Part shown: piece after piece, positions 33,591-63,998 of the stretch
Layout: every line of letters starts with the position of its first letter
Numbering within the stretch: the stretch's first letter is position 1
From: Candidatus Adlerbacteria bacterium
GTDB taxonomy: Bacteria > Patescibacteriota > Minisyncoccia > Phycocordibacterales > SBAW01
NCBI GenBank assembly: GCA_963749085.1
Contig: CAVVLG010000002.1
Location: 155,093-219,092 of the forward strand
Reading direction: 5' to 3'
Length of the DNA: 64,000 nt
Position numbers and translations under genes: made by a program
The notes under the pieces: model-generated
Databases searched by the model: none
The model's input: the letters and a program-made list of their open reading frames with translations, nothing else
Told to the model about the DNA's origin: nothing

Positions 33591-33674
33591 GTCTCAAGCA
33601 TAGCAGACCAGGTTCTAGACTCCCCTATCCAACTCAGCTGCCCCAACTCCCTTTCAATCTGCGCCCAGTTTAGA

Positions 33675-33719
33675 GTTCTGAACTTGACCGCGTGGCGGAG
33701 CCATGTTCTGAACTTGTCC
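33675..33719 (+). repeat. pair of 15-bp direct repeats GTTCTGAACTTG(A/T)CC spaced 30 bp, with GGAGCC between
   Basis: 33675..33689 and 33705..33719. The same bipartite module recurs at 34775..34819. Confidence 0.75.
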
Positions 33720-33836
33720 AACCAGTTTTTGAATGCAAGAATTTCATAGACTTTTTCAAAAAATGTGATAATGTTTTGGCGGATGTTCGCATCCGTCTAT
33801 CAACCCAAATTGGCCCAGCGGGTCAGGAGGTGAGAC

Positions 33837-34723: not shown

Positions 34724-34774
34724 TACATAAACCCCAACACCGCAACCTCTTTCGCGATAATCCTCCAATCCAAA

Positions 34775-34819
34775 GTTCTGAACACGTCCAAGGAGGGGAG
34801 CCCTGTTCTGAACTTGTCC
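34775..34819 (+). repeat. second bipartite GTTCTGAAC(ACG/TTG)TCC - GGGAGCC - GTTCTGAACTTGTCC module
   Basis: 34775..34789 and 34805..34819, with the same 30-bp offset as at 33675. Confidence 0.75.
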
Positions 34820-34851
34820 AAGCGGCCCCCTCCAGGGAGGGGTAATGTATA

Positions 34852-35318: not shown

Positions 35319-35482
35319 GCCTGCCTCGTTAGTAAGAGCTACTCGTTGTTAAAACGAGGCTCCACGTTATGGAGCCGCAAGAGTATATCATAAAAATCGA
35401 TTATCTCAATACTGTCACGAAAAATGAGGTATTCTTAATTATAAATAAGTGCATTTCCTCCTCAATTTGCCTCCAATTCAGC

Positions 35483-35497
35483 GTTCTGAACTTGTCC
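35483..35497 (+). repeat. GTTCTGAACTTGTCC repeat (single copy) followed by GGAGCC and TTGACT
   Basis: Same 15-mer as at 33705 and 34805. Lies about 95 bp upstream of the 35590 ORF. Confidence 0.7.
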
Positions 35498-35589
35498 TTG
35501 TAGCGGAGCCAGCTATTGACTCAATTTATTTTAAATGTTAAAGAGGTAACAGAAGTACTGCTTCTAAATTCAATATATGGAGGTGCGCA

Positions 35590-44133: not shown

Positions 44134-44676
44134 ATGCCTCTCACCAACGAGCAGTGGAGCGTCATCGCTCCGTTTGTCACACCCCTCAAGCGTTTGGAAA
44201 CCCGCGGCCGTCCCCGGCAGGACGACCGCAAGATACTGGAAGGTATCCTCTGGGCACTGAAGACCGGCGCCCAGTGGAAGCACCTGCCGAAAGACTACCC
44301 GCCCTACCAGACCTGCCATCGCAGGTTCCAGCAGTGGGTGGAGAGCGGCGCCTTTGACCGCATCGTCGAAGCCCTGGCCATGGACATGGAATACCGGGGG
44401 CGCATCAAGCTCAGGAGCTGCTTTCTCGATGCCACCTTCGCGGGGGCAAAAAAGGGGGTCTTGGCGTGGGACCCACGAAGCGTGGGAAAGGCACCAAGAT
44501 CATGGCGATTGCGGACGAAGGCTCTCTTCCAGTCGCCGTCTATGTGGCCTCTGCTTCTCCGAGCGAAGTCCGGTTGGTTGAAGACACGCTTGCCCGGCGA
44601 TTTACCCGACAGAATCCGCTTCGCCTCACGGCTGACCGAGCATATGATTCCGATCCGCTGGATGGAACGCTCCTGA
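44134..44676 (+). CDS. IS5-family transposase OrfA (N-terminal DNA-binding part)
   Basis: LTNEQWSVIAPFV...GRPRQDDRKILEGILWALKTGAQWKHLPKDYPPYQTCHRRFQQW matches the DUF4096-type N-terminus of IS5/IS427 transposases. Confidence 0.8.
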   Translation: MPLTNEQWSVIAPFVTPLKRLETRGRPRQDDRKILEGILWALKTGAQWKHLPKDYPPYQTCHRRFQQWVESGAFDRIVEALAMDMEYRGRIKLRSCFLDATFAGAKKGVLAWDPRSVGKAPRSWRLRTKALFQSPSMWPLLLRAKSGWLKTRLPGDLPDRIRFASRLTEHMIPIRWMERS

Positions 44677-44906
44677 ACAAATACCGCATCAAACTCATTT
44701 CACCGCATCGCAGAGGCCGGGTGCGCAGAGCAACACAGGACGGCAGGGCGCTGCGCTCCTACAAGCGCCGGTGGAAGATTGAGCGGCTGTTCGCGTGGAT
44801 GCACAACTGGAGAAAGCTCGTGACTCGCTACGAATACAAACTGCAGAACTTTGCCGCCTTCGTGAAGCTCGCGTGCATCATGCTATTACTCAAACATTAT
44901 TTTTGA
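44452..44906 (+). CDS. IS5-family transposase OrfB (DDE domain), expressed as an OrfAB fusion by -1 frameshift
   Basis: The -1 frame from the A6G5 tract reads KKGGLGVGPTKRGKGTKIMAIADEGSLP...ADRAYDSD...YKRRWKIERLFAWMHNWRKLVTRYEYK, the DDE_Tnp_1 C-terminal signature. Confidence 0.8.
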
Positions 44907-44955: not shown

Positions 44956-45714
44956 ATGAAAAGTAAACTGACACTTCTAGTTACCTCCTCGGCACTTCTC
45001 GGCTCCCTCCTCATAGTGGGAGTTGCCTCCGCGCAGACCACGACTCCCCCGCTCTCGGGTTCCCAAGGCGGCCACTGGGGTATGGGCACGGGTAGCCGTA
45101 TGCCTGGCGTCTTTGGCACCGTCTCAGCAATTAACGGCACGACGCTCACTGTCACGAGTAAGGGCTTCGGCCAAAACGCAACCGCGACGACCTATACGGT
45201 TGATGCTTCGAATGCGACCGTCTCGAAAGCCGGCGCAAGTTCATCGGTCTCCGCCATCGCAGTCGGCGACACGGTCATGGTACAGGGCACCGTCTCGGGC
45301 GACTCGGTTACGGCAACCTCTATTCGCGACGGCGCAATGCCGGGCGGCCCAGGCATGGGACAGAATATTATCCAGGGTAACGGCGAGCCCGTAGTCGGCG
45401 GAACGGTAACGGCTATAAGCGGCTCGACGGTAACTATCACCAACAAAAGCAATGTAACCTATACCATTGACGTCTCAAGCGCGACGGTTGAGAAGGATAA
45501 TGCAACCTCCTCAGTCCCCGCTATTGCGGTCGGTGACAATGTCGTCGTCCAGGGTACGGTCAATGGCACCTCGGTCACTGCTTCTTCGGTTATTGATAGT
45601 GGTGTCTCCACGGGAACTTCTTCCTCAGGCGGCATGTCAGACATCAGCCACCGGTTGAGCGGATTCATGGGGGCCATTGGGGGTTTCTTCCAGCATCTCT
45701 TCGGATTCTTCTAA
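44956..45714 (+). CDS. secreted tandem-repeat protein (DUF5666-like beta repeats) with C-terminal QHLFGFF
   Basis: Signal peptide. Two ~100-aa repeats (GTVSAINGTTLTVTSK...TYTVDASNATVSK...SAIAVGDTVMVQGTVSGDSVTATSI). C-terminus GGFFQHLFGFF. Confidence 0.5.
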   Translation: MKSKLTLLVTSSALLGSLLIVGVASAQTTTPPLSGSQGGHWGMGTGSRMPGVFGTVSAINGTTLTVTSKGFGQNATATTYTVDASNATVSKAGASSSVSAIAVGDTVMVQGTVSGDSVTATSIRDGAMPGGPGMGQNIIQGNGEPVVGGTVTAISGSTVTITNKSNVTYTIDVSSATVEKDNATSSVPAIAVGDNVVVQGTVNGTSVTASSVIDSGVSTGTSSSGGMSDISHRLSGFMGAIGGFFQHLFGFF

Positions 45715-46448: not shown

Positions 46449-48233
46449 ATGAATGAAAAAACTGCGGGCCGTGTGGGCGTGTATGGGTTTTTGGCGTTTC
46501 TTTTGGTTTTGTTCATTCCTCTCTCCTTTGCCCTGGCACAAAGCGCTCCGTCGCTCTCCATTACCTCCCTCACGCCGGGAGGCACCGTCAACGCGGGAAC
46601 ACAGGTGTCCTTCGCAGTCGTGGCAACCGGATTCACGAACCCTACTTATTCCATAAGCGACTCCTACAGTGGCACCTCCGTCTCAAGCTCCGACCTTAAC
46701 TCCTCCGGGGTCTTCACCTGGACGCCCGCGCAAGGCGACATCGGCACGCACAACCTCACTATTACCGCCATTGATTCCTCGGGCGACAACGCGAGCATCA
46801 CTCAGCAAATCATCGTCAACAACACGCCGTCGCTGTCGGTCTCCAGTCTCTCTCCGGGCACCTCGGTGAGCGTGGGTCAGGATATTACGTTTGACGCCTC
46901 TGCTTCGTATTTCACCGGCACCCCCGCGTATTCCGTGAGCGATTCCTTCTCGGACTCCTCGATGACGACGGGCGCCATCAATTCCTCCTCCGGCACATTT
47001 TCCTGGACGCCTGAATCGCAGGATGTCGGTACGCACACGATAACGATTTCTGCGACCGATTCCAACGGGGACAGCGTCAACACGACCGAGACCATCACGG
47101 TCAACCAAAGCGCCTCGCTTTTCATCACCTCTCTGTCTCCCGGATCAAGCGTTGCCTATGGCAATCCGGTGGCGTTCACCGTGACGGCAACCGGATTCAA
47201 TAGTCCCACCTTTACTATTGGAGATTCGGACTCCGAGACGAGTGTCAATAACGGCGACATAAACTCCTCCGGGTATTTCAGCTGGACGCCTTCGAGCTCC
47301 GACGTCGGCACCCACACACTCAGCATCTTCGCGACCGACTCCTCAGGCCACAGCGCCAACGTTTCGCAGACGATAACGGTGACGAGCGCCGCTCTTACGA
47401 TTGAGTCCATCTCACCGGGCTACGTCGACACAGTCGGGGAACCTCTGACCTTCACGGTCTCGGCTCCCGGATTCTCAAGCTCCACCACCTACTCAGTGAG
47501 TGATTCCTTCGGGGGGTCGACACCCACACAAACCAGCATCACCAGTGCGGACATAAACGCTGCCGGATACTTTAGCTGGACGCCCCTTGCAACCGACGCG
47601 GGCGTGCACGACATCACGATAACCGGCGCGGACACCTCCGGGCACAGCGGAAACGCGAGCATCAATATCATTGTTGATCCCGCGACTACCACCACCTCGG
47701 TCACCCCGACAACCACAACCATCTCCGCTCTGACTACCACCACTTCAACCACCGAATTCACCGAATACCTCTCGCTGGGTTCGACCGGCTCGCAAGTCAC
47801 GGCGCTCCAGCAGATCCTCTATACCGACGGGTATCTCAGCGTTCAACCGACGGGATACTTCGGCACTCTCACCGCCGCGGCCATCAACGAGTTCCAGGCG
47901 GCACACGGGATTTCGCAAGTCGGCGTTGTGGGACCGCTTACACGGGCGGCGCTCAATGCGCTCGGTTCCTCCTCAACGTCGAGCGCCTCAAACACTTCAA
48001 CTACCACCACTTCAACCACCGAATTCACCGAATACCTCTCGCTGGGTTCGACCGGCTCGCAAGTCACGGCGCTCCAGCAGATCCTCTATACCGACGGGTA
48101 TCTCAGCGTTCAACCGACGGGATACTTCGGCACTCTCACCGCCGCGGCCATCAACGAGTTCCAGGCGGCACACGGGATTTCGCAAGTCGGCGTTGTGGGA
48201 CCGCTTACACGGGCGGCGCTCAATGCGCTATAA
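46449..48233 (+). CDS. secreted cell-wall-associated protein: 5 Ig-like (putative Ig / He_PIG-type) repeats + 2 peptidoglycan-binding domains
   Basis: Signal peptide. Five ~95-aa repeats (LSxTSLxPG...F(T/S)WTP...D(I/V)GTH(N/T)(L/I)TI(T/S)A(I/T)DS(S/N)G). Two identical PG_binding_1-like modules (LQQILYTDGYL...GYFGTLTAAAINEFQAAHGI). Confidence 0.6.
   Translation: MNEKTAGRVGVYGFLAFLLVLFIPLSFALAQSAPSLSITSLTPGGTVNAGTQVSFAVVATGFTNPTYSISDSYSGTSVSSSDLNSSGVFTWTPAQGDIGTHNLTITAIDSSGDNASITQQIIVNNTPSLSVSSLSPGTSVSVGQDITFDASASYFTGTPAYSVSDSFSDSSMTTGAINSSSGTFSWTPESQDVGTHTITISATDSNGDSVNTTETITVNQSASLFITSLSPGSSVAYGNPVAFTVTATGFNSPTFTIGDSDSETSVNNGDINSSGYFSWTPSSSDVGTHTLSIFATDSSGHSANVSQTITVTSAALTIESISPGYVDTVGEPLTFTVSAPGFSSSTTYSVSDSFGGSTPTQTSITSADINAAGYFSWTPLATDAGVHDITITGADTSGHSGNASINIIVDPATTTTSVTPTTTTISALTTTTSTTEFTEYLSLGSTGSQVTALQQILYTDGYLSVQPTGYFGTLTAAAINEFQAAHGISQVGVVGPLTRAALNALGSSSTSSASNTSTTTTSTTEFTEYLSLGSTGSQVTALQQILYTDGYLSVQPTGYFGTLTAAAINEFQAAHGISQVGVVGPLTRAALNAL
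47733..48229 (+). repeat. perfect 230-bp direct tandem duplication (period 267 bp) inside the 46449 gene
   Basis: 47733..47962 is nucleotide-identical to 48000..48229. Encodes the duplicated PG-binding module. Confidence 0.85.
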
Positions 48234-62214: not shown

Positions 62215-62565
62215 TTACCATTTGAAAAATCCAAACACATGCTGCAGGAGCGCGGAGATATGTCCGAAGAGTCGCGCGGTGAACGCAGGCGCTATGGGAG
62301 GGGTGGACGTCGCAGAAGAAGCGGCAACATAGATATGGATAGTCTGATGACCTCGTGGAGATGAGGTCGTGGTCGCATATTGATAGTGTGTACCATCAAC
62401 GTCGGTAGTGATAGAGATGCTCGAAGTCCCGCCCCCGCTCATCTGCGTGTCTATATCAGCCGAGGCACTTGAGGAGCCGCTTGCGCTCGCCTCAGTGTAG
62501 TCATAGGTGTAGTTGTACACCTGGGGCATGGGAGGTAGTGGTGGGATAAGCATACGTAGCGTCAA
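62215..62565 (-). CDS. hypothetical Ser/Thr-rich protein ending in QHVFGFF
   Basis: Start overlaps the upstream stop (ATGA). C-terminus LFGHISALLQHVFGFFKW parallels the C-terminus of the 44956 protein. Confidence 0.35.
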   Translation of the reverse strand: MTLRMLIPPLPPMPQVYNYTYDYTEASASGSSSASADIDTQMSGGGTSSISITTDVDGTHYQYATTTSSPRGHQTIHIYVAASSATSTPPIAPAFTARLFGHISALLQHVFGFFKW

Positions 62566-63998
62566 AAAGAAAAGACGGATTTCAGCCAGCTACTCAACGT
62601 TGGGGGGGTACTGTGAGTGCTTGCGGGCGTTTTCTTTTTGGGAGTGGCCGGTTTTAGTTTCGCCGGTTGAACAGATGCCTGCGGGACAGATACTTGCGAG
62701 GAGGTGGAAGAGGGAGTGACAGGGGCGGATGCCTGCGTACCGCAGGAGAGCTGGTTAATTCTAGTTTTGGTAAGCGTGTAGACATTCCCGGTCGCGGGTA
62801 TGCCGTTTGCTGCCTGAAATTTCTTCACTGCTGCTTCAGTGAGGTTACCGTAGTAGCCCGTTGGCTCAACCGAGAGATACCCCTCCTGATTGAGGATAGT
62901 CTGCAGCACAGTCACATCGGCGCTGCTATTATTTTTTGACCCGGGGAACAGATAACCGGCAAGCGGGGGCGTGCACGAGGTGGTTTCATTCGACGTGTTC
63001 TTGTTGATCGATACGTTCGCGAGATCCACGGTCGATGTCCCCAGTACTTCCCCTCCCCCCGAAAAACCGCTCGTTGAAGTGGCGATCATGCTTCCGTTGG
63101 GGAAATACTCCACATCACCCTCTCCATCAACAGGGGTTATAAAGTTGGTGTCGAAGTCCTGTCCGGTCACTTCAGCAACGTTATGGTAGATACCCGGCGT
63201 GGTGCTGGCCGTAAATTGCGCCGCGTACGTAAGGGTGACTTGATCTCCCGGCTCAAGAACATCCAGATTCCACGAGCGGGTATACACGATCCCTCCTGAG
63301 GGGTTATAGAGCGTGTCAGTCAGCGTTGAATTGTAGAGGGGTCCGGCATTTGGATCGTCGGTGACCACGACTTGATAGTTTACCGAGGCAGGCGTGGTGT
63401 CGGCTACCGTGAAGGTTTTCACCACGGTTATCTCTGCGGAAGACAAAATATTTGATCCGGAGCTGCCTCCTCCACCTCCGCTGCCGCCTCCCCCTGCGCC
63501 TCCTCCTCCTGCGCTCGAGGACGTAGTACTCGAAGGACTACCCGTAGTGCCACTGGAGGCGCCGCTGCTTGCGCCCCCACCGCCGCCTCCACCTCCGCTT
63601 GAGGTAGAGCTGCCTCCGGTTGTACTGCCGGTGGTAGGTGGAGCGCTACCACCCCCGCTTCCTGAGCTTGCGCTGCCTCCGGTAGGTGGATCGCCGCCGC
63701 CGCTTCCTGAGCTTCCGCTGCTGGGGTCAGTGCCTGAGGCCGAAGAAATGACGATCGAGACGGTTTGGGTATTATCGGTGTCGTTCTGGTTGTGCTCGTC
63801 TGAGGTGGCGGTTGCGGTCAATGGCACGGCCACCGAATCCCCGGTCGGCAATCCGGGCGCTTCCACGCGCATGATGGCGTCTATCTCAACCGAAGCACCC
63901 GGGGCGATGCTGCCGAGCGTCCACTGCGTGCCTCCTGAGATGCTGGAACTCGTGCCACCGTCGCTTCGCTCCAGAAAGAGCAGGTTCTGATTGTACAC
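62562..63998 (-). CDS. cell-surface protein with Gly/Ser-rich linker and C-terminal peptidoglycan-binding domain (N-terminus outside window)
   Basis: ORF open to the window edge. PG_binding_1-like VLQTILNQEGYL...GYYGNLTEAAVKKFQAANGI. Long G/S/T low-complexity tract. Confidence 0.5.
   Translation of the reverse strand: MYNQNLLFLERSDGGTSSSISGGTQWTLGSIAPGASVEIDAIMRVEAPGLPTGDSVAVPLTATATSDEHNQNDTDNTQTVSIVISSASGTDPSSGSSGSGGGDPPTGGSASSGSGGGSAPPTTGSTTGGSSTSSGGGGGGGGASSGASSGTTGSPSSTTSSSAGGGGAGGGGSGGGGGSSGSNILSSAEITVVKTFTVADTTPASVNYQVVVTDDPNAGPLYNSTLTDTLYNPSGGIVYTRSWNLDVLEPGDQVTLTYAAQFTASTTPGIYHNVAEVTGQDFDTNFITPVDGEGDVEYFPNGSMIATSTSGFSGGGEVLGTSTVDLANVSINKNTSNETTSCTPPLAGYLFPGSKNNSSADVTVLQTILNQEGYLSVEPTGYYGNLTEAAVKKFQAANGIPATGNVYTLTKTRINQLSCGTQASAPVTPSSTSSQVSVPQASVQPAKLKPATPKKKTPASTHSTPPTLSSWLKSVFSF

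Follow-up and report, generated by a model that had tools for sequence, protein, structure and literature searches.

We analyzed a 64,000-nucleotide stretch of DNA from a Candidatus Adlerbacteria bacterium (contig CAVVLG010000002.1 of assembly GCA_963749085.1; hereafter, the window). In this window, the gene for a predicted secreted surface protein (46449..48233, + strand, 594 amino acids) ends with two peptidoglycan-binding modules that are encoded by identical DNA. We propose that these modules had long been distinct from each other, and that module 1 was recently copied onto module 2 by gene conversion within the gene. We put the probability of this explanation at roughly 70%. The ancestral state of the lineage, the direction of the transfer, and the mechanism are all things that we infer.

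The original prediction had reported that positions 47733-47962 and 48000-48229 are the same, with a period of 267 nucleotides (nt). Direct reading of the sequence, Tandem Repeats Finder, and a repeat finder all confirmed this: the two copies match at 230 of 230 nt. Tandem Repeats Finder places the repeat at 47733-48229, with a period of 267, 1.9 copies, 100% matches, and a score of 994. The 64-kb window has no other tandem array with a score of at least 80 and no other long exact repeat, so the 230-nt identity is far beyond chance. The repeat is in frame, as 47733 is the first position of a codon within the open reading frame (ORF) at 46449..48233 (+), and 267 nt corresponds to 89 codons. The 77-amino-acid peptide that had been reported from the repeat is indeed encoded twice; its final leucine codon is CTc versus CTa, with the third base lying just beyond the 230-nt identity.

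Although the repeat had been described as a perfect tandem duplication, its layout is R(230)-S(37)-R(230), where R is the repeat and S is a 37-nt spacer (47963..47999, +). After finishing the leucine codon begun in the first copy, S encodes GSSSTSSASNTS. Even with up to 3 mismatches allowed, S occurs nowhere else in the window; no counterpart of it precedes the first copy or follows the second. Also, the periodic stretch covers 497 nt, while a true doubling of the 267-nt unit, head to tail, would give 534 nt. The single occurrence of S is incompatible with a simple doubling of the unit.

The first copy (R1, the likely donor; 47733..47962, +) comprises seven Thr/Ser codons, EFTE, and the first PG_binding_1 module, whose envelope is at 47766-47957 (+). 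The second copy (R2, the likely recipient; 48000..48229, +) occupies the C-terminal slot and has module-1-type sequence, with the module envelope at 48033-48224 (+). The identity stops 1 nt 5' of the TAA stop codon (48231..48233, +), which follows directly. The flanks of the two copies are unrelated: on the left, a Thr-rich linker versus S; on the right, S versus the stop codon and the intergenic DNA that follows. An exact tract shared by paralogous segments (here, 230 nt at 100% identity) with non-identical flanks is what gene conversion would leave behind.

How unusual is an identical pair in this family? We found 191 significant homologs, with a best non-self identity of ~47–50%. The source names of these homologs point to Patescibacteria, Minisyncoccia, and Kaiserbacteria. 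We counted modules in 120 listed homologs: two C-terminal peptidoglycan-binding modules are present in 76, one in 44, and more than two in none. Among the ten closest non-self homologs (P0002-P0011), eight have two modules, and just P0003 and P0004 have one. Judging from these sequences, two modules are the norm for the family, and the two-module state appears to predate the repeat event. The original prediction viewed the repeat as the gain of a second module, which does not fit with the presence of two modules in 76/120 homologs; instead, the slot of a distinct paralog now seems to hold a copy of module 1. Module counts in relatives had also been suggested as a check, and these came to one or two, never more; the closest of these relatives are only ~48–50% identical to the window protein.

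The two modules within a protein are usually quite diverged. Across the other 75 homologs with two modules, their identity ranges from 38 to 69%, with a median of 53%; in the window protein, it is 100%. At the DNA level, we compared the modules of six homologs whose loci we fetched. In five of the six, the modules are 59–65% identical, with 27–48% identity at third codon positions; the exception is P0034, at 74%. Exact runs between the two modules of a homolog are typically 11–21 nt long. The region between the modules is ordinary: the spacing in the window protein is 25 amino acids, where the family range is mostly 20–30, and S aligns with the family's inter-module linker, which is rich in Ser and Thr.

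If the modules of most family members are position-specific paralogs (which we will call d1 and d2 for the first and second slots), then it should be possible to tell which type the identical modules of the window protein belong to. We built profiles of each slot and tested them on held-out sequences, using 5-fold, repeated random splits of the 75 homologs and scoring each module by its d1 bits minus its d2 bits. All 125 held-out d1 cases scored above zero (mean +13.6 bits), and all 125 held-out d2 cases scored below zero (mean –15.0 bits). These sequence comparisons show that modules 1 and 2 are position-specific paralogs, ancient ones that have been kept distinct across the family.

In the same tests, the window module came out on the d1 side, at +9.7 to +13.1 bits. 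Of its two halves, the N-terminal one was strongly d1 and the C-terminal one had a d1 leaning. By plain identity, the six nearest neighbors of the module are all from slot 1. At the most discriminating column (column 17), it has the isoleucine of d1 instead of the arginine or lysine of d2. (A strict search for signature columns, with at least 60% consensus in both slots, yielded one column only; the total-variation analysis and the tests with hidden Markov models were more informative.) In the alignment, the C-terminal copy in the window lacks the hallmarks of module 2, namely GDGYVFNNF, ELQxRLTALG, VGYVGP, and ALNQ at the stop codon. The C-terminal slot does not hold the position-2 paralog, and the putative recipient carries the signature of its donor rather than that of its positional orthologs, as would be expected after gene conversion. 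Both copies in the window are of the module 1 type, making this a d1-d1 protein in a family where d1-d2 is usual. The window protein is alone in this among the 76 two-module members of the family: its C-terminal slot is identical to module 1, and the family-typical module 2 is missing. Because both copies are typed as d1, and because S looks like the family linker at its usual spacing, we think that module 2 was replaced in place by a copy of module 1.

A second member of the family carries a partial tract of the same kind. P0034 is encoded in a separate assembly (locus L006; gene at L006:2677-4785), and within its gene, L006:4336-4431 is identical to L006:4681-4776 over 96 nt. This tract spans the 3' halves of both modules and reaches the very end of the module, as in the window. 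In contrast, the 5' halves of its modules are diverged, with scores of +15 to +20 bits for d1 and –16 to –20 bits for d2. To obtain a null distribution, we compared d1 and d2 modules taken from different proteins: their longest identical runs had a mean of 5.7 amino acids and a maximum of 16, as compared to 32 in P0034 and 64 in the window protein. By its sequence, P0034 appears to be a partial gene-conversion mosaic, the pattern that is characteristic of non-reciprocal recombination between slots 1 and 2. A mosaic of diverged 5' halves and identical 3' halves could not be produced by duplication. The shared half of P0034 is ambiguous in type, so that transfer may have gone either way.

Beyond this family, a d1-linker-d2 profile matched 94,090 cluster representatives at E ≤ 0.001. 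The best 150 of these are proteins with 3–16 PG_binding_1 modules. Of these 150, 7 have a pair of modules that are 100% identical (P0267, P0241, P0213, P0150, P0145, P0144, and P0132, with 4–8 modules each) and 12 have a pair with at least 90% identity. Copy-number expansion and homogenization both seem to be common in this broader class of PG_binding_1 arrays. Since identical peptidoglycan-binding modules recur in this class of domain, the window case belongs to a known kind of phenomenon.

Two internal comparisons bear on where the tract came from. First, the window gene also encodes four immunoglobulin (Ig)-like repeats, which have pairwise nucleotide identities of 54–62% and longest exact runs of 10–14 nt. 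These repeats are old and diverged, so they serve as an internal control and argue against any gene-wide homogenization. Second, we ruled out a horizontal origin of the tract, because its GC content at third codon positions is the same as that of the gene (0.72), which indicates that its sequence is native. A second large, secreted-looking protein is encoded at 62562-63998 (–) and runs past the end of the window; it has long low-complexity tracts rich in Gly and Ser and one PG_binding_1 module. We considered this module (62754-62951, –), which is module-1-like, as a donor and rejected it: its nucleotide identity to the repeat is only 56%, and no exact run exceeds 9 nt.

How might module 1 have been copied? 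In our proposal, which we regard as the most parsimonious account, the ancestor would have been a d1-linker-d2 gene with two diverged modules, and a non-reciprocal recombination within the gene would have overwritten module 2 with at least 230 nt from module 1. The copied stretch would have taken along 21 nt of upstream Thr/Ser codons. The tract would begin in the distal portion of the linker between the modules and end at the final codon ahead of the stop, with the proximal 37 nt of the old linker (S) spared. The left junction would lie in low-complexity Thr codons and the right junction at the last codon, beside a palindrome. The molecular route could be gene conversion or, with equal plausibility, a template switch primed by microhomology in the Thr-codon tract.

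At the junctions themselves, we noticed two short features. A 9-nt string, CACTTCAAC, lies across the S/R2 junction (47993-48001). It is found again within each copy of R, at 48008-48016 (15 nt farther downstream) and at 47741-47749. It is possible that this is the microhomology at the left junction, or it might be due to chance, given the low complexity of the Thr-codon tract. The palindrome GGCGC-TCAAT-GCGCT is found at the 3' end of each copy (47948-47962 and 48215-48229). In the second copy only, a T-rich stretch comes next and gives it the look of a terminator, although the count of such elements is not above the expectation from shuffled sequences. Situated where the tract ends, the palindrome might serve as a pause site or as a weak terminator. 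A scan for promoters and terminators found nothing above the shuffle expectation. Two tRNAs were the only Rfam hits in the window, and ARAGORN detected just these as well; nothing RNA-related lies over the repeat. We disregarded two antisense ORFs that cross the repeat (47489-47800 and 47843-48067, minus strand) as mechanical ORFs without supporting evidence.

Several points weigh against replacement by gene conversion. The nearest homolog is ~48–50% identical, so we deduce the d1-d2 ancestor from the family and not from a sister genome. The check on this ancestor came from the ten closest homologs: eight of them are d1-d2, and all are at most ~48–50% identical to the window protein. Scans of genome and metagenome contigs with peptide patterns for close relatives confirmed none. 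Also, d1 and d2 DNA is ~60% identical with runs of 11–21 nt, which makes it a poor substrate on which classical RecA-mediated conversion would be inefficient; a microhomology-mediated template switch may have been at work instead. The right edge of the tract is only 1 nt from the stop codon, which would require that the lost module 2 had homology at its end or that in-frame products were selected. Among the single-module homologs, 27% lean towards the d1 type and 73% are d2-like, and a d1-only ancestor is conceivable. Finally, the R-S-R layout is read from the assembled sequence.

The d1-only ancestor leads to the alternative that survives best, a de novo duplication, which we nevertheless consider to be unlikely. 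Under this scenario, a single d1-type module ending in AALNAL and a stop codon would recently have been duplicated, with 37 nt of linker newly added between the copies. This would explain the zero divergence between the copies, and a one-module state is found in 44/120 homologs, with 27% of these leaning d1. The identical pairs in 7/150 multi-module PG_binding_1 proteins resemble recent duplications of a unit as well. However, S has no source copy in the window, which excludes a simple tandem duplication, and so the filler DNA would have to mimic the family's Ser/Thr linker in both composition and length. Of the ten closest relatives, eight are two-module proteins, and the single-module relatives are mostly d2-like (73%). 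P0034 also shows conversion at work between the two slots. The original prediction had left a choice between a very recent duplication and gene conversion. Of these two, the evidence favors gene conversion.

It is somewhat less probable that the repeat is an artefact of assembly or polishing, so that the copies are not truly identical or are not truly two in number. Bubble-popping or consensus polishing could homogenize similar copies and smooth out a few real mismatches, or the repeat loop could be traversed the wrong number of times. The contig appears to be from a metagenome-type assembly, and an exact repeat of 230 nt exceeds typical k-mers, so an R-S loop could hide additional copies (R-S-R-S-R). 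On the other hand, a collapse would leave one copy, not two, and the assembled path needs three distinct junctions in the reads (from the end of R to S, from S to the start of R, and from the end of R to TAA and the intergenic DNA). A normal d2, with ~60% nucleotide identity to d1, would cause no ambiguity in the assembly graph. Comparable tracts are present in independent assemblies, and the product of the gene is clean, in frame, and well folded in the structural model.

The weakest alternative, which we judge to be very improbable, is the original suggestion of a hotspot of contraction and expansion, in which frequent unequal recombination keeps the repeats identical and the population varies between 1, 2, or more modules to tune the valency of wall binding. 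From now on, RecA-dependent deletion or expansion could readily act on two identical 230-nt direct repeats with 37 nt between them, and other PG_binding_1 proteins carry 3–16 modules, some as identical pairs, but the 120 family homologs have 1 or 2 modules only and include no other near-identical pair (none above 69%), unlike a variable-number tandem repeat or contingency locus, the distinctness of the positional paralogs across the family implies long-term stability rather than ongoing turnover, and any instability at this locus would follow from the conversion instead of being its purpose.

The rest of the protein is consistent with a role at the cell surface. The coding sequence (46449..48233, +) is supported by the ORF listing, Pfam, the AlphaFold model, and the homologs. 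The first 90 nt (46449..46538, +) encode a predicted Sec signal peptide, with cleavage expected after MNEKTAGRVGVYGFLAFLLVLFIPLSFALA and before QS: it has a basic n-region, a hydrophobic helix at residues 7–21 in the model, and an A-L-A motif. From the sequence and the model, we think that this N-terminal helix with its A-L-A cleavage motif is probably a Sec signal peptide. Next are four tandem Ig-like (He_PIG) beta-sandwich domains (46542..47678, +; amino acids 32–124, 127–219, 220–312, and 318–410), and then a Thr-rich disordered linker 5' of the first copy of the repeat (47679..47732, +; sequence DPATTTTSVTPTTTTISAL). Pfam identified four stretches of He_PIG (PF05345; 46.2 bits versus a cut-off of 24) and two stretches of PG_binding_1 (PF01471; 101.5 bits versus a cut-off of 23; envelopes at amino acids 440–503 and 529–592). 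The original prediction had placed two peptidoglycan-binding modules in a large surface protein, and this agrees with the two PG_binding_1 domains that Pfam finds at the C-terminus of a predicted secreted multi-domain protein.

The AlphaFold model, built from 45 homologs, has a mean predicted local distance difference test score (pLDDT) of 86.4. It shows, in order, an N-terminal hydrophobic helix, four beta-sandwiches, a disordered linker (residues 414–433, pLDDT below 50), a three-helix module, a second disordered linker (residues 509–521, which corresponds to S), and another three-helix module. The Ig-like blocks are beta-sandwiches with pLDDT above 90. The three-helix bundles, at 448–459/473–485/496–507 and 537–548/562–574/585–593, are mostly at pLDDT 84–94. 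According to Foldseek, the string of Ig-like domains matches tandem Ig/cadherin-like adhesion proteins. The peptidoglycan-binding module has sequence matches to the solved peptidoglycan-binding domains 4lpq, 1lbu, 6tci, and 7rum. The protein has the full arrangement of signal peptide, Ig-like repeats, Ser/Thr linker, and C-terminal peptidoglycan-binding modules. This suggests a beads-on-a-string surface protein that is secreted via Sec by a Patescibacteria-type (Candidate Phyla Radiation, or CPR) bacterium, probably with a role at the surface or in adhesion. The two C-terminal modules are predicted to bind peptidoglycan and would hold the four Ig-like domains on it.

Similar extracellular proteins with Ig-like domains and PG_binding_1 are found in other Patescibacteria, with the same signal peptide, tandem He_PIG domains, Ser/Thr linker, and C-terminal PG_binding_1 as the window protein. 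Their sources annotate them as "peptidoglycan-binding protein" or [quoted passage not shown] PG_binding_1 is also found in the Zn D-Ala-D-Ala carboxypeptidase of Streptomyces albus (1lbu), in the N-terminal domain of SleB (6tci), in an ErfK/YbiS L,D-transpeptidase (4lpq), and in endolysins (7rum); the window modules resemble these by their sequence matches and by their predicted three-helix fold. Unlike those proteins, the window protein has no attached catalytic domain: neither Pfam, NCBIfam, nor the model revealed one within its 594 amino acids. No NCBIfam family scored above its cut-off, and the hydrolase and SleB models match via the binding module only, far below their cut-offs. The peptidoglycan-binding modules appear to be an anchor for the Ig-like domains and not a targeting domain for a hydrolase.

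The genes upstream include an IS4/IS5-family transposase at 44134-44906 (+), which is in two overlapping frames, with DUF4096 in the ORF at 44134-44676 and DDE_Tnp_1 in the ORF at 44466-44906. The split could reflect a programmed frameshift, or else the transposase could be a pseudogene. The surface-protein gene starts ~1.5 kb farther downstream, and nothing suggests that the transposase had a part in the repeat. A secreted DUF5666 protein is encoded at 44956-45714 (+), also upstream, with an FMN reductase gene in between. At the locus of the homolog P0029, a DUF5666 protein (L003:4068-4895) is encoded directly upstream of the gene with Ig-like and peptidoglycan-binding domains, and the two may form a conserved neighborhood of secreted proteins. 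Farther away, three imperfect copies of a 57-nt element with GTTCTGAACTTGTCC-like motifs are found at 33665-33721, 34765-34821, and 35473-35529. The copies are 77% and 67% identical to the reference copy, are 1100 and 708 nt apart, and lie among ORFs of unknown function.

Concerted evolution and intragenic gene conversion are known for the tandem modules of bacterial surface and wall-binding proteins. Like those cases, the window has an exact tract between paralogous modules, a recipient that groups with its neighbor in the same gene, and a mosaic in a relative. In contrast to multi-copy arrays that are continuously homogenized, the window shows one event, apparently not repeated, in a pair of modules whose divergence is otherwise stable. 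As genome evolution, this is ordinary: a new instance of a well-known process, the homogenization of repeat modules by gene conversion. What the family-wide baseline adds is to quantify the correction that the repeat is a homogenized pair and not a gained module.

In Paceibacteria, some of the most highly expressed proteins are reported to be extracellular ones with peptidoglycan-binding, Ig-like, and PKD domains, and a role in attachment to the host has been proposed for them (PMC10936435). A handle on the anchoring modules of such highly expressed proteins is of some value. As a long shot, we speculate that modules 1 and 2 have distinct binding roles, such as binding the cell's own wall versus the wall of its host, or different peptidoglycan chemotypes. 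If so, the overwriting of one module by the other, complete in the window protein and partial in P0034, would be a recurrent and selectable re-tuning of the attachment specificity of an abundant surface adhesin in episymbiotic Patescibacteria. More directly, the position-specific conservation of d1 and d2 across a large, widespread, and uncharacterized family in the Patescibacteria suggests that the two modules are not functionally redundant; as a naturally occurring d1-d1 variant, the window protein offers a way to test this.

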